From Thermoanaerobaculia bacterium (lineage in GTDB: Bacteria > Acidobacteriota > Thermoanaerobaculia > Gp7-AA8): DNA of 64,000 bases. The notes under the pieces are model-generated. The model had not been told where the DNA came from, did not search any database, and worked only from the letters and a program-made list of their open reading frames with translations. Location of the stretch: contig DASQJY010000044.1 of the NCBI GenBank assembly GCA_035630815.1, positions 5,249 to 69,248 on the forward strand, written 5' to 3'. Positions 953 through 61,609 of this stretch are shown in pieces. The stretch's first letter is position 1. Every line of letters begins with the position of its first letter. The translations under genes were made by a program, and so were the position numbers.

Positions 953-1029
953 GGTGTCGGGTGTCAGGTATCTGGGGTGTCTCGTCCGGGCGACAATCCC
1001 CAGACATCTGATACCCGACACCTGACACC
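953..1029. repeat. heptamer-array hairpin element, GGTGTCA family
   Basis: Left arm is GGTGTCG GGTGTCA GGTATCT GGGGTGTCT. After a loop, the right arm CCAGACATCTGATACCCGACACCTGACACC is its reverse complement. Lies between convergent genes (stops at 942 and 1083). Confidence 0.9.
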
Positions 1030-1082
1030 ACCCCCCCACCGCCGGATCCCTCGCTACACTCGGGATGACGCGTCTGCGCGCG

Positions 1083-1658
1083 TCAGAACTCCGGTGCGAT
1101 CAGCCCCAGGTTGTTGTCGCGCCGCTTGTAGATCACCGACACCTGGTCGGTGTCGATGTCGCGGAAGACGATGAACTCGTTCTTGGAGTCGTCGAGGTGC
1201 AGCGCGGCCTGCTCGATCGACATCGGGCGGATGGCGATGTTGTTCGTCTTGATGATGCGCGGCATCCCCTCGTTCGCCTCGTCGGTCAGGCGGCCCGGCT
1301 CGAGCACCTGCACGGCCCACTCGGTGATGTCGGGAGTGAAGGCCGTCTCGCCGTTGCCGTGGCGGTGATGGTCGCGGATCTTCTTGCGGTTCTTCTGCGC
1401 CTGGCGCTTCACGTGGTCGAGCGCGGAATTGGCGGCGTCCTGCATCGACTCGTCGGAGGTCTGCACGCTCTTGACGTCGTGCTCCTTGCCGGTGATCAGG
1501 ATCTCGCAGATGTTGCGGTACTTCTCGACCTGCAGCACCACGCGCACGTCGATCACGTCGTCGAACAGCTTCTCCTGGATCTTGGCGAGCTTGGTCTCGA
1601 GCATCGCGCGGAGGTCGGCTGGGATGTCGTAGTTGCGGCCGGAAATCTCGGTTGCCAT
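1083..1658 (-). CDS. hpf: ribosome hibernation promoting factor, long form
   Basis: From MATEISGRNYDIP there is an S30AE-type N-domain plus the long-HPF C-terminal domain (RIIKTNNIAIRPMSIEQAALHL..FIVFRD). Directly downstream of rpoN. Start placed at internal ATG 1658. Confidence 0.9.
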   Translation of the reverse strand: MATEISGRNYDIPADLRAMLETKLAKIQEKLFDDVIDVRVVLQVEKYRNICEILITGKEHDVKSVQTSDESMQDAANSALDHVKRQAQKNRKKIRDHHRHGNGETAFTPDITEWAVQVLEPGRLTDEANEGMPRIIKTNNIAIRPMSIEQAALHLDDSKNEFIVFRDIDTDQVSVIYKRRDNNLGLIAPEF

Positions 1659-1669
1659 CGTCACACCTC

Positions 1670-3124
1670 TCAAAAGATTTGCTTGCGGTCCGTCGACGAG
1701 GGGATGTTCAGCTCGTCGCGGTACTTCGCCACGGTGCGCCGTGCGATGTTGATGCCTTCATCGTTGAGGATCTTCATGATCTTCGAATCGCTGAGAGGCT
1801 TGCGCGGGTCCTCGTTCTCGATGTAGCTCTGGATCTTCTTCTTCACGGTCAGCGACGAGATGTCCTCGCCGGTATCGGAATCGATTCCGCTGTGGAAGAA
1901 GTACTTCATCAGGAACAGGCCGCGCGGCGTGTGCATGTACTTGTTGGACACGACGCGCGAGACCGTGGATTCATGCATCTGGATGTCGTCCGCGACGTCG
2001 CGCAGGACGAGCGGCCGGAGGAAGTCGATCCCCTTCTCGAGGAACTCGCGCTGGTGCTTGACGATCGATTCGGCCACCTTGTAGATCGTGCGCTGGCGCT
2101 GGTCGAGTGACTTGATGAGCCACACCGCGGAGCGGATCTTGTCCTTGATGTAATTGACCGTTTCGCCGTCGGACTTCGAGTCCATCGAGTTGAGCATCGA
2201 GCGGTAGCCGCTGTTGATGCGCAGCTTGGGCATGCCGTCCTCGTTGAGGACGATCACGTATTCGTCGCTGACCTTGTGCACGTAGACGTCGGGCTCTACG
2301 TAGATCGCTCGCTCATTGGAGTATTTCCTCCCCGGCTTGGGATCGAGATGCTTGATCAGCTCGACGATGCCCTCGAGCGTCTTCATGTCGATGCCCAGGG
2401 ACTTCGCCAGCGGGACGAACTTCCGCTGCATGAACTCTTCCCAGTGATCGCGGATGATCACTTCCACGAGGGGCGTGTCGATCTCCAGGAAGCGCAACTG
2501 GAGCAGGAGGCACTCGCGGAGGTCGCGCGCGCCGACGCCGATCGGGTCGAGCGACTGCACGGCCTTGATCGCGGTCTCCACTTCCTCCGGCGTGTAGCCG
2601 CCGGACGCGGCCACCTCGTCGTCGGTGGCGCGGAGGTAGCCGTCCTCGTCGATGTTGCCGATGATGAACTGCGCGATCTCTTTCGTCCGCGGCGAGGCGT
2701 CGGACATCGAGAGCTGCCAGCTCAGGTGATCGGAGAGGTTGGGGGGGCGGGTGAGCGTGTTCTCGATGGGGAACTCTTCGTGCTCCTCCCCCATCCCGCG
2801 CGGGTTGTAGCCGTACTCGATGTAGTCCTGGAAGTACGCGTCGTAGTCGATCTCGTCGAAGGAGTCCTTCTCCTTCTCCTCCTTCGTCTCCTGCTTCTTC
2901 GCGTCCTCGGCTTCGTTCTCCGCTTTCGCTTCCTCGGCCTGGGTCTCCTCGGTCTTCACTTCTTCAGCGGATTCGTCGAGGAGCGGGTTCTCGAGCAGTT
3001 CCTGGTTCAGCACTTCCTGCAGCTCGAGCTTCGACAGTTGCAGCAGCTTGATCGCCTGCTGCAACGACGGCGTCATGATCAGCTTTTGGCTGAGTTTGAG
3101 GTGAAGCTTCTGTTCAAGTGCCAA
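1670..3124 (-). CDS. rpoN: RNA polymerase sigma-54 factor
   Basis: N-terminal MALEQKL.LKLSQKLIMTPSLQQAIKLLQLS region, acidic linker, and C-terminal RpoN box ARRTVAKYR. Confidence 0.95.
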   Translation of the reverse strand: MALEQKLHLKLSQKLIMTPSLQQAIKLLQLSKLELQEVLNQELLENPLLDESAEEVKTEETQAEEAKAENEAEDAKKQETKEEKEKDSFDEIDYDAYFQDYIEYGYNPRGMGEEHEEFPIENTLTRPPNLSDHLSWQLSMSDASPRTKEIAQFIIGNIDEDGYLRATDDEVAASGGYTPEEVETAIKAVQSLDPIGVGARDLRECLLLQLRFLEIDTPLVEVIIRDHWEEFMQRKFVPLAKSLGIDMKTLEGIVELIKHLDPKPGRKYSNERAIYVEPDVYVHKVSDEYVIVLNEDGMPKLRINSGYRSMLNSMDSKSDGETVNYIKDKIRSAVWLIKSLDQRQRTIYKVAESIVKHQREFLEKGIDFLRPLVLRDVADDIQMHESTVSRVVSNKYMHTPRGLFLMKYFFHSGIDSDTGEDISSLTVKKKIQSYIENEDPRKPLSDSKIMKILNDEGINIARRTVAKYRDELNIPSSTDRKQIF

Positions 3125-3143
3125 CTTCTGGGGCCTTCCTCGC

Positions 3144-3896
3144 TCAGTTTAGATTGAATGTCTCGCCGAGATAAATGCGCCGGACTTCCGCGTCGGCAGA
3201 AAGGCTCTCCGGCACGCCCTGCCGGAAGATTTCGCCTTCTTTGATGATGTAGGCCCGATCGGTGATCTTCAGCGTTTCCCGCACGTTGTGATCCGTAATG
3301 AGGATCCCGATCCCCCGGGCCCGCAGTTGCGAAACGATGCGTTGAATCTCGAAGACTGCGATTGGATCGATTCCTGCAAACGGCTCATCTAGCAAAATGA
3401 ATGCCGGATTGATCGCGAGGCTCCTGGCGATCTCCACGCGCCGCCTCTCCCCCCCTGACAGCATGTAAGCGCGGCTCCGCGCGATGTGCGTGATGCCGAA
3501 CTCCTCGAGCAGCGCACGCGTCCGGCGCTCGCGCTCCGCGAGCGGCAGGCGCATGGTCTCGAAGACGGAGAGGAGGTTCTCCTCGACCGTCAGTTTCCGG
3601 AACACGGACGCTTCCTGCGGCAGGTAGCTGATCCCGCGCTGCGCCCGCAGATACATCGGCAGCTCGGTGATGTCGTCGTCGCCGAGGGAGACCGTCCCGT
3701 CATCCGGCTTCACCAGCCCCACGATCATGTAGAAGGTGGTGGTCTTCCCCGCCCCGTTCGGCCCGAGCAGCCCGACGATCTCCCCCTGCCGGATGTCCAC
3801 CGAGACGTCGCGCACGACCTTGCGCCCCTTGTAAACCTTCACCAGGTGGGTTGCCGTGAGCCGCAGCGGCTCGGGTTTGACGGAGGCATCAGCCAT
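3144..3896 (-). CDS. lptB: LPS export ABC transporter ATP-binding protein
   Basis: Walker [13 protein letters not shown] signature [15 protein letters not shown], Walker [10 protein letters not shown]. Sits between rpoN and an OstA-domain gene. Confidence 0.93.
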
Positions 3897-3948
3897 GCGC
3901 GGCGGAGATTATCAGACGAGAGGCTCCGGCGCGGGCGTACCGTGAACG

Positions 3949-4260
3949 GAATTGAAAATTGAAAATTGAAAATTGAAAAATCGGAGCTGCCCACTCATGC
4001 AGCGAACGGAACGATCTCCAACTCTGCCGCCTTGTCGGCACGCTCGAGGATCTGCTCCACGCGCGCCAACGTGACGTTGTCGAGCAGGTACTCGTTGCAT
4101 CGTTCGCACTGCAGAACAGGCAGCTTCTTGATGATGACGATGGTCGCCCCCGAGACCTTGAATGGCAGATCGGTCGTCGCTGCCATCAGCTTCCCGGCAC
4201 AAACGAGGCACTTCATGACCGCCCTCCGATTTTTCAATTTTCAATTTTCAATTTTCAATT
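3949..4260. repeat. GAAAATT-heptamer inverted repeat pair enclosing a 222-nt ORF (MITE-like, filled copy)
   Basis: Left arm 3949-3986 is GAATTGAAAATTGAAAATTGAAAATTGAAAAATCGGAG. Right arm 4224-4260 is its reverse complement. AT-rich arms in a GC-rich context. An empty copy of the same arms lies at 28557-28646. Confidence 0.9.
3995..4216 (-). CDS. YgiT-type zinc-finger protein (MqsA N-terminal-like domain only)
   Basis: MKCLVCAGK...LQCERCNEYLL gives two CxxC pairs with the spacing of the YgiT-type zinc finger. SD GGAGG lies 6 nt upstream of ATG 4216 and is contributed by the repeat arm. The ORF-track start at 4237 lies inside the arm. Confidence 0.6.
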   Translation of the reverse strand: MKCLVCAGKLMAATTDLPFKVSGATIVIIKKLPVLQCERCNEYLLDNVTLARVEQILERADKAAELEIVPFAA

Positions 4261-4294
4261 TGGCTCCGAAGGCAACCGGCCCTCCATCCTCCGC

Positions 4295-6283
4295 CTAACC
4301 CTCGTGCTTGTACGTCCCCTGCGTCTTGCCGTCCGAGCTGAGGACCTGGACACGGTCCTTGGCGATGTCGAAGACGATCTGCTGGCCGGCTACGTTTCCT
4401 TTCGGGTCGGTGATCGTGGCGGGCTTGCCGAAGACGTAGATCATCTTTTTCTCGACGTGGTAGATCGCCTTGTCGCCCGTCCCTTTGCGGCCGGTGGACG
4501 TCTCCCCCATCGCCACGCCGTTCTCCGCTTCCATCCGCTCCACCTTGCGGTTCTCGTCGAGGAAGAGCGTCGCTTTCTCCGACTTCAGGTTGCGCGTTTC
4601 GTCGACGATCGAGACCTTGCCGAGGAGCTCGACGCGGCGCTCGTTCTTGCGGGCGATGAGCTGGTCGCTGTTCGCCTGCATCGGGGTCTTGCGCGCGACA
4701 TCGGTGGAGGTGTTGTAGAGCAGCGTGCGCACGTTGCCGCGCGCGGTGATGCTGTCGCCGGCGCCCTGCACCTGCAGCTCCTGCGAGAGGATGGTGTTGT
4801 TGTCCTGCCAGGCGCGGACGTTGCCGGTGAAATGGGCGACCTTCTGCGCCTGCCGCATGATCAGCTCATCGGCGTTGACGAAGACCGGCTTGCCCGAGGG
4901 GAAGAGATTCGTGCCGTCCGCCGAGGCGCCGGTGGTTTTCGCCTTCGACGCGAGCTGCGCGATCACGGAGCCGGTTGCGCGTGCGGTCTGCGCGCGCGGG
5001 GCGAACTCGATCTGCTTGGCCTTCAGCGTGTGGCCGTCGCTGACGACCGTCGCCTGCCAGCCGGGATCGGTGGTGAGCAGGATGCGGTCGCCAGTGATGT
5101 CGTAGGTCGCGCGGAATGCCGAGGCGGTGGTGCGCGGGTCCGTGTAGCGGAACGCGCCCTCGAGAGACGCGGTGCTCGCCTTGCGCGTGCCGGGGTCGAA
5201 CCAGACCTTCACGTGCTCCGCGGTGATCTGGCGCGTTTCGGGTCCGAGCTCTTTCATCACCACGGACCAGTCGGCCCTGATCTCGCTGACGGAGCGGTTC
5301 GCGAGCGCGATCCGGAAGTTGCGCGCCACAATGTCGCGCTGCGGCGGGCCGTCGAGGATGGCCCGGGCCATGTTCTCGGCGCTGATGGCGTTGATGGCGT
5401 TGATCTGGCCGTCCGGCCCGAGCTCGGTGTTGAAGAGGTCGCAGGTGATCTGTTTGCGTCCGCCGAGGTCCTCGCCGGGGGCGGTGTTGGCAGCGGTGAC
5501 GATGACCACGTTGCCGCGCCCTTCGAGCGCGACGATCTGCTTCCGGTCCGGCGTGAAGCGGCCGATCATGTAATCGGAGCGGAGGCTTTCCGGTCCGCGG
5601 TCCATCTTCACTGCTTTGGTGAACTCGACCACGTTCTCGGTGCGCCGGAAGAGGCTCTCCTCGCCGGCGATGGTCATCGGCTGTTCGGTCGGGTGCTGCG
5701 GTGCCATGGTGGCGGTGACGTTCTTGTGCAGCCGCAGCGTCTCGCCCGCGACGTCGAGGTCGAGCGCGCCGGCCTTGCCGTCCCACCGGTCGACCTTGAA
5801 CTCCACCGGGATGTCGTTCCTCAGCCGGCTGCCGTCGTAATGGATCTCGGCGGTCTTGATCTCGATGCCGTCGGTGGAGGTGACGCGCACGCCCCCCTTC
5901 GCCTCGGCTGCCTTCGTCTGGCTGTTGAATTGCGCCTGGGGGCAGGCGATCACGTAGGTCAGGCCATTCTGACGGTGAAGGGTGAGCGTGACCCCTTCCA
6001 GCGTGGTCCAGCCGGATTCGAAGGAGACCAGGCGAGTGGCCACGATCTCGGAGACGACGCGGCCGCCGATCGTCTGCACGTCGCGAAAGGCGCGCGACTC
6101 GAGCAGCGGGTCGTCGCCGGGCCGCTGTGTCGAGGTGACGGCTACGCCCGGCTGCCGCGGTGCGCGGCGCGAGGCGGTCCAGTTGGCGACGATCACTCCG
6201 ACGAAGGCGAGAAATGCGATCGGCAGCGCATAGCGAAGGACACGGATGGTGCGCTGCATGTTCGAGCGACGTAACATCTTCAC
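4295..6283 (-). CDS. LptC/LptA-like OstA-domain periplasmic LPS transport protein (fusion-like, N-terminal membrane anchor)
   Basis: Single N-terminal TM (ALPIAFLAFVGVIVANW). Repeated beta-jellyroll OstA-like segments (GNVRAWQDNNTILSQEL, LLGKVSIVDETRNLKSEKATLF). Position immediately upstream of lptB. Confidence 0.65.
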   Translation of the reverse strand: MKMLRRSNMQRTIRVLRYALPIAFLAFVGVIVANWTASRRAPRQPGVAVTSTQRPGDDPLLESRAFRDVQTIGGRVVSEIVATRLVSFESGWTTLEGVTLTLHRQNGLTYVIACPQAQFNSQTKAAEAKGGVRVTSTDGIEIKTAEIHYDGSRLRNDIPVEFKVDRWDGKAGALDLDVAGETLRLHKNVTATMAPQHPTEQPMTIAGEESLFRRTENVVEFTKAVKMDRGPESLRSDYMIGRFTPDRKQIVALEGRGNVVIVTAANTAPGEDLGGRKQITCDLFNTELGPDGQINAINAISAENMARAILDGPPQRDIVARNFRIALANRSVSEIRADWSVVMKELGPETRQITAEHVKVWFDPGTRKASTASLEGAFRYTDPRTTASAFRATYDITGDRILLTTDPGWQATVVSDGHTLKAKQIEFAPRAQTARATGSVIAQLASKAKTTGASADGTNLFPSGKPVFVNADELIMRQAQKVAHFTGNVRAWQDNNTILSQELQVQGAGDSITARGNVRTLLYNTSTDVARKTPMQANSDQLIARKNERRVELLGKVSIVDETRNLKSEKATLFLDENRKVERMEAENGVAMGETSTGRKGTGDKAIYHVEKKMIYVFGKPATITDPKGNVAGQQIVFDIAKDRVQVLSSDGKTQGTYKHEG

Positions 6284-6319
6284 GGCTCAATTCGTTCCGG
6301 CACGGCGTACGATTTCGCC

Positions 6320-6745
6320 ATGCGTGCTCATGTGATTCTCGGTACCGCGGTCCTGCTGCTCTTCGCGACCGGTGCCGCCCCCGCCGCCGACGACCCGCAG
6401 GTGACGGAACTGCTCGCCGCCATCAAGGGAAAGGAGAACCGTCCCGCCGGCGAGGTCTTCAAGAACGTGACGCTGCTGAAGGACGTGCCCGCCGCCCGTT
6501 TCCTCCGCATGATGGACGTCGGCTACAGCCAGTCCCTCGGCATCGGCTGCGATCACTGCCACGTCGAGGACCGCTGGGAAGCAGACGAGAAACGCCCCAA
6601 GCGCGCCGCCCGCGAGATGATCATCCTGGTCAAGGAGATCAACGCCCGCCTCGGCGAGATGCAGGAGATCGATACCTCGGACGCGGTGGTGAACTGCACC
6701 ACCTGCCACCGCGGCTATGTGAAGCCGGCCCTGCAGATGCGGTAA
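6320..6745 (+). CDS. secreted c-type cytochrome, reaction-centre cytochrome c subunit-like
   Basis: Signal peptide and two haem motifs, CDHCH and CTTCH. KNVTLLKDVPAARFLRMMD resembles the CytoC_RC family. Confidence 0.65.
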   Translation: MRAHVILGTAVLLLFATGAAPAADDPQVTELLAAIKGKENRPAGEVFKNVTLLKDVPAARFLRMMDVGYSQSLGIGCDHCHVEDRWEADEKRPKRAAREMIILVKEINARLGEMQEIDTSDAVVNCTTCHRGYVKPALQMR

Positions 6746-14959: not shown

Positions 14960-15206
14960 CGTGAAGGTCACTCAGGAAATCGTGAGTGCCGGGCACGGAT
15001 GTCGTGAAGGTCGCTCAGGACGTCGTGAGCGCCGACACGGACATCGTGAGCGCCGGCACGGACGTCGTGAGCGCCGCCACAGACATCGTGAGCGCCGCCA
15101 CGGATGTCGTGAGCGCTGCAACGGACATCGTGAGCGCTGCAACGGACATCGTGAGCGCCGCCACGGACATCGTGAGCGCCACCACGGACATCGTGAGCGC
15201 CGACAT
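14960..15206. repeat. 21-nt tandem repeat array, about 11.7 copies
   Basis: Unit CGTGAGCGCCGCCACGGACAT repeats head to tail with point variants. Units 1 and 3 are the CGTGAAGGTC.CTCAGGA variant, and unit 2 has one extra G. Confidence 0.95.
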
Positions 15207-15212
15207 TGGTTT

Positions 15213-15344
15213 CTCTACCGGACGAACAGAAGCAGTCAGAGCGGTAGCTGCCGCCACCGCACTCCATATGAATTCGGCGCGGGATTGATATGGAGTGCGG
15301 TAACGCTAGTTACCGCTCTGACTGCCTCTGTTCGTCCGGTAGAG
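15213..15344. repeat. long imperfect inverted repeat, GGAGTGCGGTAAC family (inner-facing cores)
   Basis: Arms are CTCTACCGGACGAACAGAAGCAGTCAGAGCGGTAGCTGCCGCCACCGCACTCCATAT and ATATGGAGTGCGGTAACGCTAGTTACCGCTCTGACTGCCTCTGTTCGTCCGGTAGAG. The right arm supplies the last 12 codons and the stop of the GT4 gene. Confidence 0.9.
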
Positions 15345-16298
15345 AAGGGCACGCTGCTCGTACAGGTCGACGGTCTCTCTCGCGACCCGGTCCCAGTCCC
15401 ACTGCATAACGCGGGCGTAGTTGTGCGCGCCCATCGCTGCGACATCCTGCGCGCTCGTGGCGCGCTGCATGGCGTCGAGCAGCGCATCCCCTTCGTAAAG
15501 AAAGGCGCCACCCTCGTCGAGCATCCCGCCGATGCAGCCGCGGCGGACCGCGATGCACGGCTTCGCGAACGACATGGCCAGGATCGCGGCGCCCGAGGTG
15601 AAGCCGTGCCGATACGGGAGCACGACCGCGTCGCAGGCGTTCATGTAGAGCTGCACGCGCTCGTCGGGGACCGCGCCGGGCGCGAAGGTGATGCGCGTGT
15701 TGCCACTCGTGCGGCGTTGGAGCTCGTGCAGGAGCGAGAAATCCGGAACGCTGCCGGCCAGCACGAGATGCGCGTTGCCGCCGAGGCGTTCGAAGGCATC
15801 CAGGAGCTGCTCGACGCCCTTGTACCTGCGGATCCAGCCGAAGAGGAGGAACACGAACGCCCCGTCCGGAACGCCGAGGGTCCGCCGCGCATCGTCTCGC
15901 GTGACGCGGTTCTCGTAATGATCGGTGTAGCGGCCGTGCGGGATGGTGATCGCCTTCTTCGCGAACCGCCCGAGCTCGCGCCGCCCTTCATCGCAGTGGA
16001 GGATCAGCGCGTGAGCGAGACGCAGCGTGACGGCGGTGATGAGCGCGTCCCGCAGTGGGCGCGGGTTGTCGTGGCGCCGCAGGTCGTGCACGGTCCAGAC
16101 GATCCTCACGCGGGTGAGACGCGCACGCACGAGCATCCCGAGGTAGCGCAGGACCGAAGACGCGGCGGTATGGACGTTGTGCAGATGCAGCACGTCGGGG
16201 CGGCTGTCGACGAGCTCGATGCCCGCACGCCGGAGCGCGCCGGCGAGCAGGGTCTCGTAGGGATTGAACTTCCAGCGCGAGACGAACCGCACGCGCAT
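15306..16298 (-). CDS. glycosyltransferase family 4 (GT-B)
   Basis: MRVRFVSRWKFNPYE start overlaps the priA stop (ATGA). The C-terminal half has the GT1/GT4 layout (FLLFGWIRRYKGV...VLPYRHGFTSGAAILAMSFAKPCI). Confidence 0.8.
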   Translation of the reverse strand: MRVRFVSRWKFNPYETLLAGALRRAGIELVDSRPDVLHLHNVHTAASSVLRYLGMLVRARLTRVRIVWTVHDLRRHDNPRPLRDALITAVTLRLAHALILHCDEGRRELGRFAKKAITIPHGRYTDHYENRVTRDDARRTLGVPDGAFVFLLFGWIRRYKGVEQLLDAFERLGGNAHLVLAGSVPDFSLLHELQRRTSGNTRITFAPGAVPDERVQLYMNACDAVVLPYRHGFTSGAAILAMSFAKPCIAVRRGCIGGMLDEGGAFLYEGDALLDAMQRATSAQDVAAMGAHNYARVMQWDWDRVARETVDLYEQRALLYRTNRGSQSGN

Positions 16299-20800: not shown

Positions 20801-20873
20801 TAGTTGCTGGTTGTTGGTTCAAGGGGCCGTTTCGTCAGGCGTAAAGGCACCCTCAACCAGCAACCAGCAACTA
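20801..20873. repeat. heptamer-array hairpin element, GGTTGCT family
   Basis: Arms are TAGTTGCTGGTTGTTGGTTCAAGGGG and CACCCTCAACCAGCAACCAGCAACTA. Lies between convergent genes. The last 3 nt form the coaBC stop codon. Confidence 0.85.
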
Positions 20874-22052
20874 GATTCTCGCCAGAATCAAATCCAAAAG
20901 CCGGTTCGCGATCACGCTCTTCGGCGCCTTCTCGAGCCGCGTGGTGCCCCCGTCCTTTGCGATGACGAGGACCTCGTTCTGCGGGGAGTCGAAGCCGATG
21001 GTGTGGTCGGAGACGTCGTTGGCGACGATCAGGTCCGCGCCTTTGCGCTGCAGCTTCTCGCGGGCGTTCGCTTCGACCGAGTCGGTCTCGGCGGCGAAGG
21101 CGACGATGAAGGGGCGGGGGTCGAGCCTGGCCACGTCGGCCAGGATGTCGGGGTTCTTGCGGAGGGTCAGCGTCAGCTCGTCGCTCCCCTCTTTCTTCTT
21201 GATCTTTTTGTCCGCCACGTCCGCGGCCGAGAAGTCGGCGACGGCGGCGGCCTTGATCACGACCTGGTGATGCGGAGCGGCGGCCATGACCGCGGCGTGC
21301 ATCTCCTGCGCGGTGCCGACGCGGGTCAGGTCGACGCCGGCCGGGGCGGCCATTGAGACCGGACCGGAGACGAGCGTCACGTGCGCGCCGCGCCTGCGGG
21401 CGGCTTCGGCGATCGCGTAGCCCATGCGGCCTGAGGAACGGTTGGAGATGTAGCGCACCGGGTCGAGCGGTTCGCGGGTGGGGCCGGCGGTGACGAGGAT
21501 GTGCTTCCCCTCCAGGTCGCGCGCCGCAAAGTACGACTTGACGATGCCGACCAGCACCGGCACGTCCGGCATCTTCCCCGCTCCCTCTTCGCCGCAGGCG
21601 AGGAGGCCGTTCACCGGCTCGATGATCTCCACGCCGCGAGCGCGTAACGTGGCGATGTTCTGCAGGACGGTCGGATGCGCGAGCATGTGCGTGTTCATGG
21701 CCGGGGCCACGGCCACGGCGTTGCGATGCGCCAGGGCGTAGGTGGTCAGCGCGTCGTCGGCGATGCCAACGGCGAGCTTGGCCAGCGTGTTGGCCGTGGC
21801 CGGCGCGACCAGCAGCAGGTCGGCCCAGCGCGCCAGCTCGATGTGATCGACGCCGCCGTGGCCGGGATCGCCCCACTGATCGCTGATGACGCCGTGGTTG
21901 GAGACGGCTGCGAGAGAAAGCGGAGAAACGAAACGCGCGGCGTTCGGCGTGAGGATTACCCGAACGTCCGCGCCGATGTCGCGGAGGCGGCGGACCAGCT
22001 CGGGCGTCTTGTACGCCGCGATACCGCCGGTCACTCCGAGGACGATGTTCAT
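20871..22052 (-). CDS. coaBC: bifunctional phosphopantothenoylcysteine decarboxylase / phosphopantothenate-cysteine ligase
   Basis: MNIVLGVTGGIAAYK flavoprotein N-domain and a CoaB C-domain (ISNRSSGRMG). Start at ATG 22052. Confidence 0.93.
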   Translation of the reverse strand: MNIVLGVTGGIAAYKTPELVRRLRDIGADVRVILTPNAARFVSPLSLAAVSNHGVISDQWGDPGHGGVDHIELARWADLLLVAPATANTLAKLAVGIADDALTTYALAHRNAVAVAPAMNTHMLAHPTVLQNIATLRARGVEIIEPVNGLLACGEEGAGKMPDVPVLVGIVKSYFAARDLEGKHILVTAGPTREPLDPVRYISNRSSGRMGYAIAEAARRRGAHVTLVSGPVSMAAPAGVDLTRVGTAQEMHAAVMAAAPHHQVVIKAAAVADFSAADVADKKIKKKEGSDELTLTLRKNPDILADVARLDPRPFIVAFAAETDSVEANAREKLQRKGADLIVANDVSDHTIGFDSPQNEVLVIAKDGGTTRLEKAPKSVIANRLLDLILARI

Positions 22053-22053: not shown

Positions 22054-22148
22054 GGTGTCAGGTATCGGGTGTCAGGTGTCTGTGGCTTTGCGGCTGACGA
22101 GACATGCGCCGTGAGCCGGAAAGCCCCAGACACCAGACACCTGACACC
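22054..22148. repeat. heptamer-array hairpin element, GGTGTCA family
   Basis: Left arm GGTGTCA GGTATCG GGTGTCA GGTGTCT. An extended imperfect inner stem follows. Right arm is GCCCCAGACACCAGACACCTGACACC. It fills the whole rpoZ-coaBC gap, beginning 2 nt from the coaBC ATG. Confidence 0.9.
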
Positions 22149-28556: not shown

Positions 28557-28646
28557 CGAAATTGAAAATTGAAAATTGAAAATTGAAAGATCGGAAGCGC
28601 ATCGCCTGGTTCGATTTTTCAATTTTCAATTTTCAATTTTCAATTG
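28557..28646. repeat. GAAAATT-heptamer hairpin element (empty copy)
   Basis: CGAAATTGAAAATTGAAAATTGAAAATTGAAAGATCGGA, then a loop of about 15 nt, then TCGATTTTTCAATTTTCAATTTTCAATTTTCAATTG. The arms match those at 3949-4260. Confidence 0.92.
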
Positions 28647-32672: not shown

Positions 32673-32688
32673 GGTGTCGCTCCCGTGC

Positions 32689-32842
32689 CAGCAGTTTGGA
32701 GTGCGGTGACCGCAGTCACCGCTTTGACTTGCCGCGGAGCGGCAGCGCGCGTTGATCCGCACTCGTGCAGCTCCGAGGCACGCTCGCCGGCTCCGCCGGC
32801 AGTGAAAGCGGTGACTGCGGTCACCGCACTCCAAACTGCTGG
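32689..32842. repeat. long inverted repeat, GGAGTGCGGT family
   Basis: Arms are CCAGCAGTTTGGAGTGCGGTGACCGCAGTCACCGCTTTGACTTGCCG and CGGCAGTGAAAGCGGTGACTGCGGTCACCGCACTCCAAACTGCTGG, about 60 nt apart. Each arm holds its own small palindrome (GGTGAC..GTCACC). Confidence 0.9.
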
Positions 32843-32855
32843 CGCAGGGACCACG

Positions 32856-39851: not shown

Positions 39852-39975
39852 GATTTTCACCTTCAGTCTCACCTTCAGGACAGTTGAACTCGTCGATTTT
39901 CATCTTGAGTCTCACCGGGAGGACAGTTGAACCCCATGATTTTCATCTTGAGTCTCGCCTGGAGGACAGTTGAAC
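39847..39975. repeat. 43-nt tandem repeat, 3 copies
   Basis: GATTTTCA(C/T)CTT(C/G)AGTCTC.CC....GGACAGTTGAAC (38 nt) at 39852, 39895 and 39938, separated by 5-nt variable linkers. A degenerate fourth copy overlaps the recG 3' end near 40016-40040. Confidence 0.9.
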
Positions 39976-43030: not shown

Positions 43031-43992
43031 GATGTGACCGCTGCTTCCGTGACGGTGAACGCCCGATCCCGGGTATCGAGACGCACTGTCCTGCCGACCG
43101 GCATCAGGAGATTGTTTCCGTGATGCCCGATGGGGAGGTTGCGTACGACTGGGATCTGCAGCGGCTCGAAGAATTCGCGCAGAAACGCGAGCAATTCCGC
43201 GTCGTCGCCGCAATCCTTCAATGTGCCGATGAGTACACCCCGGACCGCCTGCATTCTGCCAGACAGGCGTAGGTGGGTCAACATACGGTCGAGACGGTAA
43301 AGCGGCTCGTCGACGTCTTCCCAGAACCAGATGCCGCCGTCGACCCAATAGTCGTACGCCGTGCCGACCAGCGACTGCGTCAGGGCCAGGCAGCCGCCGA
43401 AGAGCGGCCCTTCCGCTTCCCCTTCCACGACCACGTCGCCGGCCGCGAATTCGCGCGTGAGCGGCGCCCCGCCGCTGAGCATGTCCCAGAACCACCGTTC
43501 GATGTCCGGACTGAGCCCGCCGCGGAAGTCGAGGTTGATCATCGGGCCGTGAAAGCTGGCCACGCCGACCTGGGTCGCGAGCGCCTGGTGGATGGCGGTG
43601 ATGTCGCTGAACCCGACCAGCGGCCGCGGATTCGCGGCAAAGGCGGCGTAGTCGATCCGGTCGAGGATGCGCATGGCGCCGTAGCCGCCGCGGGCGAAGA
43701 AAAAGGCGTCGTACTCCGGCGAGCGGAAGGCGCGATTGAGCTCCTCGACCCGCTCGTCGTCGGTCCCGGCCAGGTAGCCGCGGTGGCGGCGGTCGACGTT
43801 CGCGGCGATGGTGACGCGATGCCCGAGCCGCTCGATGGCCCGCGCGCCTTCGACGATGCGCGCCCGCTCCGAGGGGCCGGAGGAGGCGAGGATGGCGATG
43901 TGGGCGTGTTGTGGGATTGCTCGCGGCGCGATGAGGCGGGGGGACGGGATTGAGGATTGAGGATTGAGGATTGAGGAGGAAGAAGAATGCAC
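43027..43992 (-). CDS. ldcA: LD-carboxypeptidase (peptidase S66)
   Basis: IAILASSGPS, GGYGAMRIL and nucleophile block VGFSDITAIH. The start is uncertain. The only in-frame canonical start not overlapping rnpB is GTG 43992, inside the hairpin loop. Confidence 0.75.
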   Translation of the reverse strand: MHSSSSSILNPQSSIPSPRLIAPRAIPQHAHIAILASSGPSERARIVEGARAIERLGHRVTIAANVDRRHRGYLAGTDDERVEELNRAFRSPEYDAFFFARGGYGAMRILDRIDYAAFAANPRPLVGFSDITAIHQALATQVGVASFHGPMINLDFRGGLSPDIERWFWDMLSGGAPLTREFAAGDVVVEGEAEGPLFGGCLALTQSLVGTAYDYWVDGGIWFWEDVDEPLYRLDRMLTHLRLSGRMQAVRGVLIGTLKDCGDDAELLAFLREFFEPLQIPVVRNLPIGHHGNNLLMPVGRTVRLDTRDRAFTVTEAAVTS

Positions 43993-44046
43993 GGGGACAT
44001 TCTCCGATGCTTTCTCCTCAATCCTCAATCCTTCATCCTCAATCCC
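43946..44046. repeat. heptamer-array hairpin element, TGAGGAT family
   Basis: Arms are GGGATTGAGGATTGAGGATTGAGGATTGAGGAGGA and TCTCCTCAATCCTCAATCCTTCATCCTCAATCCC, with a 32-nt loop. Starts 10 nt past the rnpB 3' end. Confidence 0.92.
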
Positions 44047-44056
44047 GAAGGAAGAA

Positions 44057-44473
<417 letters not shown>

Positions 44474-46898: not shown

Positions 46899-46973
46899 TG
46901 CTGCCCCGCCCCTTCTTCCGCTTACTGTCCGTTATGGACGGCGCGGATTATCGCATCTGCGGCGAGCTTCATT

Positions 46974-47133
46974 GTTGTCGGTTGTCAGTTGTCGGTTGTC
47001 TGCGCCTTTATGGCGTTGGGCCTTAGGCGTTGGGCCTTTGGGGTGTTTCGGCTTCGGGAGCACACCCCAAACGTTTAAAGCCAAACGCCTAAAGCCCTAC
47101 TCCACAGACAACCGACAACTGACAACCGACAAC
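46974..47133. repeat. nested two-tier heptamer hairpin element
   Basis: Outer perfect arms are GTTGTCG GTTGTCA GTTGTCG GTTGTCT (46974-47001) and AGACAAC CGACAAC TGACAAC CGACAAC (47106-47133). Inner imperfect arms are built from GGCGTTG GGCCTTA units around the loop TTCGGCTTCGGGAG. Confidence 0.92.
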
Positions 47134-47137
47134 ACCG

Positions 47138-48994: not shown

Positions 48995-49009
48995 CTTTCG
49001 ACCCCGCTG

Positions 49010-49996
49010 TCATCCTGACAGTTTTACCTTCTGCACCGCCTTCCACGCCGCGTCCTGGATCGCCCGCGCATCCTCGGGGGTCGGGTTCTGCTCGCGCAGG
49101 GCGTCGTCATACACCTCGCTCTTTACCGCCAGGTGCTTGAACTGATACGGAGCCCCGTGCGCCGGCTTGTTGTAGATGAACGAGTAGACGGTGCAGGCGA
49201 CGAGGTATGCACCGAACGCGTCCTGGTGCACGCCGTCCCAGTCGAGGCGCTTGAAACGCCCGCGGGAGGTGAGGTCGGTCCACGCCAGCCCCACCGGCAC
49301 GACCGGCATGTTCAGCCGCTTCGCCGACTCGAGGGCGGCGGCGTTGTGCGCGGCCGGGCTCTCGCTGCGCCACACCATGTAGAACAGCGGTTGCGCTCCG
49401 CTCTTGCGCACCGCGGCCGTGAAGCGCCCGAGGTAATCGTTGAAGAGCGCCGCGTTCCGGGTCGGGCCGACTCCACCGCCGCCGCCCTGAATCAACACGT
49501 AATCCCAGTGCTCGACCCACAGCTTGCGCAGCGCCTCGGTGTCGTTCCAGAGTTGCTCCAGCGAGACGCCGCTGCGGGTGACGGCGTCGACGCGCAGCGG
49601 ACGCGGCTCGCGCGCACCGACCTCCCGCGTCATGGCCGGAATCTCGTTGTAGTAGACGAGGCTGTTGCCGAGGTAGAGGACCGAGATGACCTTCGGATCG
49701 CGCGGCTTGCGGGTGACGGTGCGGGTGGCGTACTCCGCCTTGCGAAGCGCCGGGCAATGCGCCTTGTAGCCCCGCAACGTAGCCGCGGCCGGCGCGAGCT
49801 TCGGCATCGCCTTCGTGACTTGCGGGCAGCCGCTGTGGTGGAACACGTGGGCCGCTTCGTCGATGAAGACCCGGTCGGGAAGCCGCTCGCGGAAGGTCAC
49901 GGAGGTGTCGCTGGTCCGGACGATCTCGATCTTCGGCTCGTCCGCGAAGGCAGCTGCGGACGTGGCGAGCAGGAAAGCCAGCAGGAGTTTACGCAT
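49010..49996 (-). CDS. secreted SGNH/GDSL-like hydrolase family protein (tentative)
   Basis: Signal peptide and LYLGNSLVYYN (block I-like GNS). DWDGVHQD may be the block V DxxH equivalent. Confidence 0.5.
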   Translation of the reverse strand: MRKLLLAFLLATSAAAFADEPKIEIVRTSDTSVTFRERLPDRVFIDEAAHVFHHSGCPQVTKAMPKLAPAAATLRGYKAHCPALRKAEYATRTVTRKPRDPKVISVLYLGNSLVYYNEIPAMTREVGAREPRPLRVDAVTRSGVSLEQLWNDTEALRKLWVEHWDYVLIQGGGGGVGPTRNAALFNDYLGRFTAAVRKSGAQPLFYMVWRSESPAAHNAAALESAKRLNMPVVPVGLAWTDLTSRGRFKRLDWDGVHQDAFGAYLVACTVYSFIYNKPAHGAPYQFKHLAVKSEVYDDALREQNPTPEDARAIQDAAWKAVQKVKLSG

Positions 49997-50612: not shown

Positions 50613-50677
50613 AGTCAGCGTGCTGACTGGTCAACACGTTGACGAGTCAGTCGGACGCTCATTGTATCTGGACGAAT

Positions 50678-50761
50678 GGTGTCAGGTGTCGGGTGTCAGG
50701 TGTCTGAGGCTTGTCGCCCGGGCGAAACATCCCAGACACCTGACACCTGACACCCGACACC
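50678..50761. repeat. heptamer-array hairpin element, GGTGTCA family
   Basis: Left arm GGTGTCA GGTGTCG GGTGTCA GGTGTCT GAGG. The loop contains the perfect palindrome TCGCCCGGGCGA. Right arm is CCCAGACACCTGACACCTGACACCCGACACC. Lies in a divergent promoter gap. Confidence 0.92.
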
Positions 50762-50779
50762 AACATTTCCCCGCTTAGA

Positions 50780-51535
50780 ATGCGCGGCGTGCATTTGATC
50801 GTCGTCGTCCCCTGCTTCAACGAAGAGCACCGGCTCCCCGTCGACGCCTTCCGCGCATTCGCGCCGGAAGGGTTGCGGGTCGAGTTCCTCTTCGTGAACG
50901 ACGGCAGCACCGACGGGACGCTGCGCCTCCTCGAATCGCTGCGCGCCGCCGATCCCGCGCGGAACTCCGTCCTCGACCTCGAGCGCAACAGCGGCAAGGC
51001 CGAAGCCGTCCGGCGCGGGATGCTCGCCGCCATCGAGCGGAAGCCGGACTACTTCGGCTTCTGGGATGCCGACCTGGCCACCCCCCTCGGCGAGATCCCG
51101 GCCTTCCTCCAGGTGTTCGGCAACCGTCCCGAGATCGAGATGGTCTTCGCCGCCCGGGTCCGCCTCCTCGGCCGCTCCATCAGCCGCAACCCCGGCCGCC
51201 ACTACTTCGGCCGCGTCGGCGCCACCCTCATCTCCTCATCCCTCGGGCTGGCCGTATACGACACGCAATGCGGCGCGAAGCTATTCCGCACCAGCGACCC
51301 CATCCGCGAGCTCTTCGCCGAGCCGTTCATCTCGCGCTGGATCTTCGACGTCGAGATCATTGCCCGCCTCGTCCGGCAGCGCGGCCGCGACGCCGCCGCC
51401 CGCGCGATCTACGAGCTCCCGATCATGACCTGGCACGACGTCAAAGGCTCGAAGGTGAAATCGACCGACTTCGGCCACGCGCTCAAGGACCTCTGGAAGA
51501 TTCATCGCGCATACAATCCCCGCCGCAATGACTGA
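50780..51535 (+). CDS. glycosyltransferase family 2 (dolichyl-phosphate glucosyltransferase-like)
   Basis: VVVPCFNEE, FVNDGSTDGT, WDADLATP (DxD) and YDTQCGAKLF blocks. Confidence 0.85.
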   Translation: MRGVHLIVVVPCFNEEHRLPVDAFRAFAPEGLRVEFLFVNDGSTDGTLRLLESLRAADPARNSVLDLERNSGKAEAVRRGMLAAIERKPDYFGFWDADLATPLGEIPAFLQVFGNRPEIEMVFAARVRLLGRSISRNPGRHYFGRVGATLISSSLGLAVYDTQCGAKLFRTSDPIRELFAEPFISRWIFDVEIIARLVRQRGRDAAARAIYELPIMTWHDVKGSKVKSTDFGHALKDLWKIHRAYNPRRND

Positions 51536-59402: not shown

Positions 59403-59405
59403 CGG

Positions 59406-60119
59406 CTACTTCAACGGCTGCGGCGGCTTGAAGAGCACGTCGTCGATGGCAGGATTCACCTGCACGACGTAGCGCGTCTCTCCGGTCGAGTGGGCGATCA
59501 TCACCCCCTCGACGTTCCGGTAATCGCCGAGCTGGACGGGGAAGAGCTTCTCGCCGCCCCACGGCATCTTCGCGTTCCGGGCGCGCTGCACGAGGAGGTA
59601 CGACGCGGCGTCGATCCAAAGCAGTATCTCGTCGTGGCCCGGCCGCTTGAGCGATAGCTTGTAGGCCGGCTTGTTCCCGACCTTCTCGCGCCCGAGGAGC
59701 TTCAGCTCGGCCCCCTTGGCCGGCATGTCGAGCAGGTCGCTGCGAATGAGCAGCCCCGTCTGCCACGCCCGCAGCTCCTCCGCATCCATCTTCCGCGGCA
59801 CGCCATAGTCCGGCCCACGGAAAGGATTCGAGATCCAGCCCAGCTTGCCGTCATACGCGGTGATCAGCGTCTTCCCCGAATACGCGGTGTCGCGCTCCTC
59901 GGTGCGGATCATCCCCGGACGCTTCCAGACCCAGGTGAACGTGGAGACGGAGTTCGTCCCCTTCAGCAGCAGCGACTCCACCTTCTGCCAGCGTGCCTTG
60001 CCGCCGATGGCATCGAGGTGGCGCCGGACGATCTCGTTGGCATCCGGCTGCGCGCCGGCGTTACCGAGGAGGAGCAGGAGCATGGGAAAGAGAAGGAAGG
60101 GGCGGCGGGACATGGTCAT
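59406..60119 (-). CDS. secreted LolA-like / outer-membrane lipoprotein-sorting-like protein (tentative)
   Basis: Signal peptide. EIVRRHLDAIGGKARWQKV...L.G opening is common to LolA-fold DUFs. Lies 4 nt upstream of the giant protein gene. Confidence 0.5.
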   Translation of the reverse strand: MTMSRRPFLLFPMLLLLLGNAGAQPDANEIVRRHLDAIGGKARWQKVESLLLKGTNSVSTFTWVWKRPGMIRTEERDTAYSGKTLITAYDGKLGWISNPFRGPDYGVPRKMDAEELRAWQTGLLIRSDLLDMPAKGAELKLLGREKVGNKPAYKLSLKRPGHDEILLWIDAASYLLVQRARNAKMPWGGEKLFPVQLGDYRNVEGVMIAHSTGETRYVVQVNPAIDDVLFKPPQPLK

Positions 60120-60222
60120 AGTCGGCAGGTGTCAGTAAGGGAAGAATTCTAGCAACACTTCCGGCCAGCGACAACTCACGCACAGCGGGCCGAACAGCAA
60201 CGCCCGCCGCCCCGGATCTGCG

Positions 60223-60414
60223 TCAGCCGCAGCAGGACGCCGCGACGGCAGGCGCACCCTTCTGCGATCCCTGCGGTACACCGCAACCGCATCCCGTTTC
60301 GCCCGCCGCCTTGGCATCCGCATCCCTGACGCAGCAGGCATCCGTTTCCCTCGGGGCCGGACCTCCGCAACACGTCGACGCGGGCTGTTCTGCAACTGCA
60401 TTCAATTCGGTCAT
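60223..60414 (-). CDS. small cysteine-rich protein (CC/CxC motifs), putative metal- or redox-binding
   Basis: 63 aa with 9 Cys: TCCGGPA, DACCVRD, GCGCG and a C-terminal SCCG. Divergent from the ECF sigma gene. Confidence 0.5.
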   Translation of the reverse strand: MTELNAVAEQPASTCCGGPAPRETDACCVRDADAKAAGETGCGCGVPQGSQKGAPAVAASCCG

Positions 60415-60511
60415 GTCGTCTCCTTTCGTTGCGTTCCAGAGACGGGAACGGGTGTCGAAAGACGCATCTGCGTCTTTTGGCTCCCCTTTCCGTCTATCTT
60501 TAGAGGACCGA

Positions 60512-61111
60512 ATGGAAACGAACCAGACTATCGACGTAGCAATCGACGTAGCAGCCGCGTGGCATGAGCTGGGAGACCGCCTGCGCGTCTACGTCTCGCG
60601 GCGCGTGAACCCCGGCGACGCGGACGACGTGGTGCAGTCCGTCATGGTGAAACTGCTCGAGCGCCGCACCGACATCGGCCCCGGCTCCGTGCGTGCGTGG
60701 CTCTTCGCCGTCACGCGCAACGCGGTCGCCGAGTACTACCGCCAGCGCCGGCCGGACGTCGATCTCGACACGTTCGGCGACGTTCCCGAGCATGACGCCG
60801 CCGATCCCGCCGACCGCATCCTCGGCAGTCTCACCGACTGTCTCGAGCCGATGCTCGGCACGCTCTCCGCCCCCGACGCGGACGTACTGCGCCGCATCGA
60901 CCTGCACGGCGAGGCGCAGACCACCCTCGCCGCCACCCTCGGCATTCCACTGTCGACCGTCAAGTCGCGCATCCAGCGCGCCCGCACGAAGCTCCGCGCC
61001 GCTTTCGACTCCTGCTGCGCGATCGAGCTCGCCCGCAACGGCACCCCGATCGGATTCGAGCGCGGCTCAACGTGTACGCCGTCGTGTACCGCCGAAGAGC
61101 CGCGCTCTTGA
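60512..61111 (+). CDS. ECF-type sigma-70 family factor with Cys-rich C-terminal extension (SigZ-like)
   Basis: Region 2 (DADDVVQSVMVKLLER...WLFAVTRNAVAEYYRQ), region 4 (LATLGIPLSTVKSRIQRARTKL) and the tail DSCCAIEL...CTPSC. Confidence 0.85.
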   Translation: METNQTIDVAIDVAAAWHELGDRLRVYVSRRVNPGDADDVVQSVMVKLLERRTDIGPGSVRAWLFAVTRNAVAEYYRQRRPDVDLDTFGDVPEHDAADPADRILGSLTDCLEPMLGTLSAPDADVLRRIDLHGEAQTTLAATLGIPLSTVKSRIQRARTKLRAAFDSCCAIELARNGTPIGFERGSTCTPSCTAEEPRS

Positions 61112-61120
61112 CCTTGTAGG

Positions 61121-61423
61121 ATGCGCTCCGTGACGTTCGTCCGTGCGCTGCGCCAGCTCGCTTTCATCGAAGGAATCTCCACCCTGGTCCTCTTCGGGAT
61201 CGCGATGCCGCTCAAATACTTCGCCGGCCTGCCCCTCGCGGTGCGCATCGTCGGCTCTGTACATGGAGCCTTGTTCGTCGCCCTCGTGGTGATGCTGCTC
61301 GTGGCCATCCGAAAGGTACCGATCTCCCTCGCGCTGGCCGCTGCCGGAATCGCTGCCGCCGTAGTTCCCGGCGGCCCGTTTCTCCTCGATCGATACCTGG
61401 CGCGCTTCGACGTCGCCGGCTAG
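61121..61423 (+). CDS. DUF3817-type small membrane protein
   Basis: 100 aa. LRQLAFIEGISTLVLFGIAMPLKY..G.P..VRIVGSVHG is the family pattern. Confidence 0.72.
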   Translation: MRSVTFVRALRQLAFIEGISTLVLFGIAMPLKYFAGLPLAVRIVGSVHGALFVALVVMLLVAIRKVPISLALAAAGIAAAVVPGGPFLLDRYLARFDVAG

Positions 61424-61445
61424 GCCCCCCTGTCATCCTTATAGA

Positions 61446-61609
61446 TATGGAGTGCGGTAACGCCAGTTACCGCTTTGACTGCTTCTGTTCGTGCAGTAAT
61501 CCGAGGCTGGTGCAATCTCGCCTCTTGGCACAAGCGAAGGCTGGACCTGCTTGCGTTGCCGGACGGACAGAAGCAGTCAAAGCGGTAACTGGCGTTACCG
61601 CACTCCATA
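61446..61609. repeat. long inverted repeat, GGAGTGCGGTAAC family (outer-facing cores)
   Basis: Arms are TATGGAGTGCGGTAACGCCAGTTACCGCTTTGACTGCTTCTGTTCGT and ACGGACAGAAGCAGTCAAAGCGGTAACTGGCGTTACCGCACTCCATA. Both strands therefore give the same spurious peptide MECGNASYRFDCFC in the ORF track. Confidence 0.92.

Follow-up and report, generated by a model that had tools for sequence, protein, structure and literature searches.

Elements in the window

The stretch analyzed here (64 kb of a Thermoanaerobaculia bacterium, contig DASQJY010000044.1, positions 5,249 to 69,248; "the window" means this whole stretch) has a GC content of about 66%, and about half of its sizeable gene gaps hold a long palindromic element. 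A first-pass annotation had listed 11 such elements, and all 11 are present: eight have arms of three to four head-to-tail heptamers, and three belong to a separate class. The heptamer architecture is real, lies well above chance, and is specific to period 7. Tandem Repeats Finder and an inverted-repeat search recovered the elements independently, and pairing in registers shifted by 7 nt, which the annotation had anticipated, was seen directly in the inverted-repeat search. Genes neighboring the elements include rpoN, hpf, lptB, an lptC/lptA-like gene, rpoZ, coaBC, HU, HIT, cmk, and uvrC. Predicted RNA folds of the window elements range from -39 to -111 kcal/mol (z scores of -7 to -17), with 0 of 200 shuffles equally stable. 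The elements, with two features that they flank, are as follows (R, A or G).

953..1029, hairpin with GGTGTCR heptamer arms in a convergent gap, with hpf (1083-1673, minus strand) on one side and on the other a gene that ends at 942, its stop 10 nt away; one unit longer in the 3' arm than in the 5' arm; predicted fold -51.5 kcal/mol, z -7.2
3950..3986, arm of the GAAAATT family, inner flank GAAAAATCGGAG, located 8 nt downstream of the stop of a small open reading frame (ORF)
3995..4216, minus strand, this small ORF: 73 amino acids, YgiT/MqsA-like zinc ribbon (PF15731, 23 bits, below cut-off)
4224..4260, the other GAAAATT arm, lying between the small ORF and the lptC/lptA-like gene (stop at 4295); GGAGG in its inner flank falls 8 nt upstream of the ORF's ATG
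15211..15346, class-2 palindrome like those of repetitive extragenic palindromes (REPs) and their hairpin-forming doublets (REPINs), two modules of about 50 nt head to head with GGAGTGCGG ends at the center; predicted fold -110 kcal/mol, z -17.5
20801..20873, GGTTGCT heptamer-arm hairpin filling a convergent gap; the coaBC stop codon (20871-20873) forms part of its 3' arm
22054..22148, GGTGTCR heptamer-arm hairpin filling the rpoZ-coaBC gap and ending 1 nt from the coaBC ATG
28557..28646, hairpin with GAAAATT heptamer arms between HU and HIT, leaving 10 nt to the stop codon on one side and 10 nt to the start codon on the other
32682..32848, REP/REPIN-like palindrome of class 2 between a pseudouridine synthase gene and cmk, with its modules tail to tail
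43945..44047, GGATTGA (TGAGGAT) heptamer-arm hairpin, 7 nt upstream of an S66 peptidase gene; predicted fold -68 kcal/mol, z -11
44057-44469, minus strand, RNase P RNA, bacterial class A (253 bits); the hairpin at 43945..44047 lies 10 nt beyond its 3' end
46973..47134, nested heptamer element starting 4 nt after the uvrC stop; outer arms of GTTGTCR x4 at 46973-47002 and 47105-47134, 100% complementary; inner hairpin of GGCGTTG/GGCCTTA heptamers at about 47009-47099, within the outer loop; predicted fold -110.6 kcal/mol, z -14.8
50677..50762, hairpin with GGTGTCR heptamer arms and TCGCCCGGGCGA as apical core, in a divergent gap, with a promoter-like -10 box on each side of the hairpin
61446..61609, REP/REPIN-like palindrome of class 2 with tail-to-tail modules, 22 nt past the stop codon of a DUF3817 gene

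One entry of the annotation had to be redrawn. The arms at 3950-3986 and 4224-4260 are 37 nt long and 100% complementary, and because they stand 237 nt apart and enclose the 73-amino-acid ORF they do not form a simple hairpin. We considered the ORF as cargo or as a protein encoded by the element itself, and rejected this since in sister genomes the ORF lies in the same position and no arms are present: in these (L209 3798-4258; L211 3678-4222) a DUF4258 toxin and YgiT pair lies between the lptC/lptA-like gene and lptB. In the window this site has lost the toxin gene, and the antitoxin-like YgiT ORF, now flanked by GAAAATT arms, is on this comparison a resident gene and not cargo.

Apart from RNase P RNA, an Rfam scan of the window returned nothing above threshold, and a tRNA scan of it found none. 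At the place just past RNase P RNA, a hairpin of a different family is present in L207 and no hairpin in L208. The divergent gap has back-to-back TAGAAT/TACAAT -10-like boxes (window 50776-50781; L208 9275-9353), with the hairpin between them in the window, where the C-rich arm offers outward-facing (C/T)GACA -35-like hexamers every 7 nt; a promoter scan picked out CCGACA-16-TAGAAT.

Enrichment, anatomy, and polarity

Loci of relatives, labeled L001 and so forth, were gathered through homologues of CoaBC (20871-22052, minus strand, in the window). These relatives are soil metagenome-assembled genomes (MAGs) labeled Thermoanaerobaculia, and the assemblies compared came independently from ENA, Logan, JGI, and NCBI. 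The detector took inverted repeats with arms of at least 18 nt and at least 80% complementarity and scored each arm for tandem periods of 4 to 12. In the window it returned five hairpins of period 7 at a strict cut-off and eight at a looser one, and none in 20 dinucleotide-preserving shuffles of the same sequence; without such enrichment the annotation's reading would, by its own account, have failed. A census of 428 kb from 27 related genomes yielded 28 hairpins of period 7, four of period 8, and one of period 4, with periods 5, 6, and 9-12 unrepresented, and the control set (949 kb, 56 loci from other phyla retrieved with the same query) yielded a single period-7 hairpin. Counting tandem arrays instead of hairpins in 588 kb of lineage sequence, an inverted partner was present within 450 nt for 60 of 67 period-7 arrays (about 90%), compared with three of seven in the controls.

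Each arm consists of tandem heptamers and a short, family-specific inner flank, and a variable center lies between the arms. Over 85 elements the median arm measures 32 nt, the center 25 nt, and the whole element 92 nt, with 2.5 to 5.5 units per arm; no internal palindrome was found within the heptamer arms. As first described, the elements lie in gene gaps, most of them beginning within 12 nt after a stop codon. Most units carry at most GG and some are AT-rich, and we found no single dominant unit with a G3-4 tract of the kind that forms G-quadruplexes.

The elements also share a polarity. In 38 of 38 period-7 hairpins G exceeds C in the 5' arm, with the G-rich strand of each arm running 5' to 3' toward the center; because the elements are palindromes, this is true on both strands. 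The same polarity was found in five of five hairpins in further sister loci, in metagenome loci by 51 versus 5, and in viral contigs by 55 versus 6, and the metagenome exceptions appear to stem from AT-rich contigs. The few hairpins with octamer arms lean the opposite way, C-rich arm first (for example CTCTGTGC/CTCTGTGT), and the two in L001 have identical 38-nt arms. They lie at the following positions.

L001 3372-3524, octamer-arm hairpin
L001 7572-7718, octamer-arm hairpin
L019 2206-2291, octamer-arm hairpin
L009 18793-18887, octamer-arm hairpin
L208 11849-11920, octamer-arm hairpin

Unit families and their dispersal

At least six unit families coexist in the 64 kb of the window, with GGTGTCR used three times and GAAAATT twice, and the lineage holds more than 20 unit variants. 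The annotation was right that one architecture recurs with distinct units and that this is not a single sequence family of REPs or miniature transposable elements with inverted repeats (MITEs), but its description of the units as unrelated goes too far: many are only one to three substitutions apart (GTTGTCR, GGTGTCR, GGCKTCA, and GGTTGCC occupy one orthologous site), and several G/T-rich families have in common the apical core TCGCCCGGGCGA, a perfect 12-bp palindrome. A motif common to all units, a CNG or TG phase, is suggestive inside the GTTGTCR clan and was rejected as a general rule.

Scanning metagenomes with the GAAAATT arm recovered 40 hairpins on contigs of 62-68% GC, built of (GAAAATT)3-4 with arms 97-100% complementary. 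All 40 have the inner flank GAAAAATCGGA, an A/G asymmetry often recurs, and the centers, 18-57 nt long, are unrelated. Inner flanks are family-specific elsewhere too, such as GGTTCAAGG for GGTTGCT. The heptamer families are thus discrete dispersed repeats, conserved across species. Solitary arms exist as well (L206), and arms also occur around a resident gene, as at the 3995-4216 ORF. In IMG/VR, viral contigs of 60-70% GC (L212-L395, for example L239, L383, and L328), which may be true phages or host fragments, carry heptamer hairpins of several families, sometimes five hairpins per 13-14 kb.

We also considered a general rule of conserved loop and variable arms, and rejected it, since the GAAAATT copies have the reverse pattern and the TCGCCCGGGCGA core is a family-level feature; similarity of loops is for the same two reasons not always proof of orthology.

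Inheritance and concerted change in orthologous gaps

The rpoZ-coaBC gap is empty, at 18-40 nt, in about nine relatives, which are the more distant ones, and holds a heptamer hairpin with a varying unit in about 14 others. On the CoaBC tree, GTTGTCR-type arms are common to L007, L010, L014, L028, and L038, and the units of the window (GGTGTCR), L001 (GGCKTCA), L002 (GGTTGCC), and L006 are derived. When eight orthologous hairpins from this gap are aligned, their units are in phase, 94% of cells pair, and nine of 20 pairs change on both sides, a number reached by 0 of 500 shuffles; sliding the partner by 1-3 columns makes the pairing collapse. Moreover, identical substitutions fall at the same position in all three units. 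The closest view comes from the window and L001, whose flanking genes are about 90% identical in DNA and whose hairpins share a site-specific center, while every unit of both arms differs at one or two positions; this is concerted evolution in place.

Other slots vary in content. In the HU-HIT gap the unit is GAAAATT in the window, L024, and L038, GGATTGA in L010 and L011, GAACGCA/GAATGAA in L004 and L023, and GATGAGA in L017, and the coaBC 3' gap behaves like these other orthologous slots. In the uvrC 3' gap, the window and L207 have the same nested heptamer element, L205 and L206 an unrelated long palindrome, and L208 an octamer hairpin. The divergent gap at 50677 holds GGTGTCR in the window and L205, GTTGTCR in L207, and in L206 the unrelated palindrome just mentioned, and is empty in L208. 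An octamer-arm hairpin of the sister L001 (7572-7718) stands in the slot that holds the class-2 element at 15211 in the window. Close relatives differ in presence or absence as well, for example the PatA_N/NYN gap of L207 compared with that of the window and L206.

Two comparisons catch smaller changes. Between L004 and L023/L005, 21.18 kb align with 0 mismatches and a single gap, and the two copies of one hairpin differ by one heptamer of the 3' arm, the kind of difference for which the annotation had proposed comparing related strains. Compared with the center of the L205 element, that of the 50677 element agrees at 24 of 26 positions when reverse-complemented but at only 20 of 27 in the same orientation; this is an inversion between the arms.

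Class-2 palindromes, other repeats, and transposase genes

The three class-2 elements of the window, marked by GGAGTGCGGTRAC, consist of modules some 50 nt long that have an 8-bp palindrome of their own, GCGGTAAC...GTTACCGC. They are distinct and non-heptameric, as the annotation had it, but not unusual: they show an ordinary REP-doublet arrangement, like REPINs and bacterial interspersed mosaic elements (BIMEs).

In sister genomes a third class of long palindromes (GGCCTCCGGCGGGCCGGTGTGACCGGC...) occupies the same slots as heptamer hairpins of the window.

L205 8877-9018, third-class palindrome GGCCTCCGGCGGGCCGGTGTGACCGGC...
L206 2261-2398, third-class palindrome GGCCTCCGGCGGGCCGGTGTGACCGGC...
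L206 7983-8118, third-class palindrome GGCCTCCGGCGGGCCGGTGTGACCGGC...
L206 11872-11995, third-class palindrome GGCCTCCGGCGGGCCGGTGTGACCGGC...

Another palindromic family, with CTGTCATCCTGAG ends, lies upstream of uvrC in sisters (L205 6749-6900; L206 9820-9972) and is represented in the window by short remnants only, at about 49006-49022 and 61430-61440. Two direct repeats complete the picture: a 21-nt tandem repeat of 10.8 copies (GGACATCGTGAGCGCCGCCAC) at 14975-15202, in the convergent gap beside the class-2 palindrome, with a similar 21-nt array after coaBC in L028, and a 43-nt tandem repeat of 2.9 copies at 39852-39975, between two minus-strand genes.

REP-associated tyrosine transposases (RAYTs) and TnpA-Y1 enzymes, a search for which the annotation had proposed, were sought by their motifs (HUH together with YxxNP or YxxxQ) in six-frame translations of 1.26 Mb of lineage sequence, and none was found; this is weak evidence, because such a gene is expected once per several-Mb genome. 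The sole motif match came from an unrelated contig of 46% GC (L115 8624-9170), a RAYT-like gene (NHLH ... YIHNNP) flanked by ordinary REPs, with a GAAAATT direct array 2.7 kb from it.

Origin and maintenance of the heptamer elements

We propose, with moderate confidence, that the heptamer elements are dispersed palindromes akin to REPINs and BIMEs but with microsatellite arms, inherited for the most part vertically and homogenized by slippage and gene conversion. In this model single strands, either DNA at the replication fork or transcribed RNA, would fold into very stable hairpins. Copying to new gaps would be rare and would give rise to the discrete families, and inheritance in fixed intergenic slots would otherwise be vertical. 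The arms would evolve in concert: replication slippage would gain or lose 7-nt units, and gene conversion or template switching, acting within an element's pair of arms and also from copy to copy, would spread a change to all units and restore complementarity; recombination between arms would flip the center. A precedent for such behavior exists in Xanthomonas (PMC4692102). The effect on the cell is probably passive. A paired insertion would bring an upstream stop codon and a downstream start codon or promoter back together, and insertions could be tolerated even inside operons because perfect pairing re-juxtaposes them in this way.

Several observations sit poorly with this proposal. If units drifted neutrally, GAAAATT, GGATTGA, and GTTGTCR arms would not be expected to be near-invariant across species while their centers are unalignable, and this constancy suggests a sequence-specific constraint, such as a trans-acting protein, or recent spread. 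The same family appears at one slot in non-sister lineages (GGATTGA in L010 and L011; GGCGTCA-like units in L001 and L007), and unrelated classes of element share a slot in sister genomes; insertion or replacement aimed at such slots, or selection favoring a hairpin of whatever kind, fits both facts better than drift in place does. The model leaves unexplained why nearly all elements are G-first and why the period is restricted to 7, and the single 7-nt difference between L004 and L023/L005 could be an assembly error within the repeat. Because of the constancy of arms, the recurrence and sharing of slots, the polarity, and the period, a model driven by a transposase stays alive.

On that model, which we regard as unlikely though deserving of serious attention, the elements are non-autonomous mobile elements, REPIN- or MITE-like, mobilized in trans by a transposase encoded elsewhere. 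An HUH/Y1 enzyme acting on single-stranded hairpins would be most plausible: its recognition would keep the arms constant, and resident hairpins would be its preferred targets. The discreteness of the families, with their own inner flanks, a shared A/G asymmetry, and unrelated centers, would fit such mobility, as would the identical 38-nt arms at two L001 loci and the presence or absence of elements between close relatives (the PatA_N/NYN gap of L207 against the window and L206). Insertion into a loop could account for the nested element, and unrelated classes do meet in the same slot of sister genomes. The class-2 elements of the same genome resemble classical REP doublets, head to head and tail to tail, and Acidobacteria have been reported to carry class 3 TnpA-Y1 genes and about 600 atypical hairpins per genome (PMC6006769). 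The arms could also act as terminal inverted repeats of the MITE kind. Set against this model are the negative, if weak, motif search in 1.26 Mb of lineage sequence and the lack of any target-site duplication visible in the flanks, either in the 40 GAAAATT copies or in comparisons of filled with empty gaps, where the genomes are about 10% diverged. The arms are not palindromic REPs, and no GTAG or CGTC tag was present at the arm ends read. At least six families in 64 kb would demand many enzyme specificities, and orthologous copies swap their units in place yet keep a site-specific center.

A further alternative, to which we give limited credence, takes G-first heptamer palindromes not as a transposon family but as a general, self-organizing genome structure, spanning Xanthomonas, Thermoanaerobaculia, and viral contigs whose GC content is 60-70%. 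The palindromes would be built and maintained by a core DNA-handling process with a 7-nt step and a fixed polarity to the center, candidates being slippage of the replicative polymerase combined with the cleaving and repair of hairpins (SbcCD, RecBCD, or template switching). Arms would be homogenized genome-wide, and a mechanism indifferent to sequence could give many unit families under one architecture.

Selection on the elements as cis-acting RNA structures, with sequence free to vary, seems to us improbable. They would serve as factor-independent or bidirectional terminators, as barriers to 3' exonucleases that stabilize mRNA, or as insulators between cistrons, and much about them invites this reading, which the annotation had entertained: the predicted hairpins are very stable, they start within 12 nt of stop codons (one lies 10 nt past the RNase P RNA 3' end), certain slots (the uvrC 3' gap, for one) are never without a hairpin although its class varies, compensatory change maintains pairing, and the GAAAATT family has a GC-rich inner stem followed by a U-rich 3' arm. 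A terminator role fares badly, however. The terminator scan of the window flagged no element as a whole, no T-run follows the 3' arms of the heptamer elements, and outside the GAAAATT family no window element has a U-tract. Rather than keeping to the ends of transcription units, several elements sit between tightly linked co-directional genes that leave no room for a promoter (rpoZ-coaBC, where the hairpin ends 1 nt from a start codon, and HU-HIT), and a terminator between co-transcribed genes would silence the downstream gene; one element occupies a divergent promoter gap, and the same gaps are empty in many relatives. Nor do the stem mismatches speak for function at the RNA level, since G:U is not in excess over A:C on the sense strand (15 vs 18) and the A/G asymmetry of GAAAATT arms does not significantly follow the orientation of the flanking genes (1 vs 5); the lack of a sense-strand bias therefore gives no support to RNA-level selection. 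Selection for structure alone, finally, does not account for tandem heptamers or for the constancy of sequence within a family.

We consider it very improbable that the arms are oriented arrays of recognition sites on double-stranded DNA, whether Chi-like or bound by nucleoid proteins. In the Chi-like version, cleavage of an extruded hairpin at its tip would leave sites facing an entering RecBCD/AddAB-type nuclease in the active orientation, protecting the flanks. The polarity suits this: the G-rich strand nearly always runs 5' to 3' toward the center in both arms, and Chi is recognized in that orientation from a break at the center. In addition, the GCTGGTT unit matches Escherichia coli Chi, GCTGGTGG, at seven of eight positions, three heptamers equal two turns of B-DNA, and the apical TCGCCCGGGCGA is a perfect 12-bp palindrome. 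More than a dozen units, the AT-rich GAAAATT included, cannot all serve one sequence-specific protein, however, and no candidate protein was identified.

Chance matches or assembly artifacts are a negligible explanation. Assemblers can create or collapse palindromes and tandem repeats, but no period-7 hairpin arose in the window shuffles, independent assemblies give identical or orthologous elements (L002 equals L003; L004, L005, and L023 agree), and changes between species are compensatory.

Whatever their origin, non-coding palindromes of about 90 bp that fill roughly half of the sizeable gaps and keep their sites from species to species need an explanation, because bacterial genomes are compact and deletion-biased. 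With its many units under a single architecture, its strict polarity, and the concerted evolution that can be seen in it, the lineage amounts to a natural experiment, one that could reveal why heptamers are favored as a long bacterial microsatellite, how palindromes escape destruction, and whether persistence of the REPIN kind requires a transposase. There is a practical side as well, in that the elements break assemblies, yield spurious ORFs in MAGs, and can mislead the prediction of terminators and small RNAs in the abundant soil Acidobacteriota.

Comparison with known systems

The annotation knew of no formal description of such elements, and literal repeat strings used as a literature query brought up no relevant paper, but the same architecture has been published for Xanthomonas (PMC4692102) and heptamer arrays have been described elsewhere (PMC4679880).

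REPINs and BIMEs, which are mobilized by RAYTs (Bertels and Rainey 2011, PMC3116915), resemble the heptamer elements in several respects: they are doublets in inverted arrangement that lie outside genes, fold into hairpins of about 90-110 nt, and reach high copy; a genome holds several families; conservation is stronger in the arms than in the spacer; single copies and clusters are also seen; and vertical persistence is long. This description suits the class-2 elements of the window well. The heptamer elements differ from it in that their arms are non-palindromic, lack a GTAG/CGTC tag, and vary by whole 7-nt units, and in that no RAYT was found in 1.26 Mb.

Closer in phylogeny are the atypical hairpins that flank class 3 TnpA-Y1 genes in Acidobacteria and Planctomycetes, with about 600 in Solibacter usitatus and a CnGA foot (Quentin et al. 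2018, PMC6006769). They come from the same phylum and are likewise high-copy structures, and the C-rich GGTGTCR/GTTGTCR arms can be read as tandem CnGACAC or CnGACAA. This likeness is by description and serves as a lead; the other families are without CnGA, and no class 3 gene was found in the 1.26 Mb.

Among heptamer repeats, cyanobacteria have short tandemly repeated repetitive sequences (STRRs; GGGGA(C/T)T in Nostoc) and Beggiatoaceae have TAACTGA repeats (PMC4692102, PMC4679880), and a genome-wide excess of heptamers was noted by Mrazek 2007, as cited there. These are, as here, intergenic heptamers in two to six or more copies, often near start codons and likewise without a known mechanism, and the cyanobacterial STRRs also come in several unit families per genome. 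The arrays of cyanobacteria and Beggiatoaceae are, however, almost all direct and only rarely inverted pairs, whereas 90% of those in our lineage have an inverted partner.

The nearest match is that of Xanthomonas campestris and X. axonopodis, with about 185 GGGAATC heptamer arrays per genome, mostly of four units (Rehm 2015, PMC4692102). Among these are 70-75 inverted pairs, convergent and closely spaced, most of which have the same flanking genes in the two species and vary in length and sequence, and both strands of the arrays are transcribed (PMC4692102). Both systems consist of intergenic tandem heptamers in convergent pairs, with the G-rich strand inward and with persistence at orthologous sites. 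In Xanthomonas a single unit dominates, one that has a GGG tract and has been studied for its formation of G-quadruplexes, whereas the elements described here belong to another phylum and to many families, most unable to form G-quadruplexes and some AT-rich, with inner flanks, an apical core, nesting, and concerted turnover. What this lineage adds to the known heptamer palindromes is therefore the phylum, the coexistence of many unit families, some of them AT-rich at 66% GC, the nesting, the apical core, the concerted turnover, and the polarity rule.

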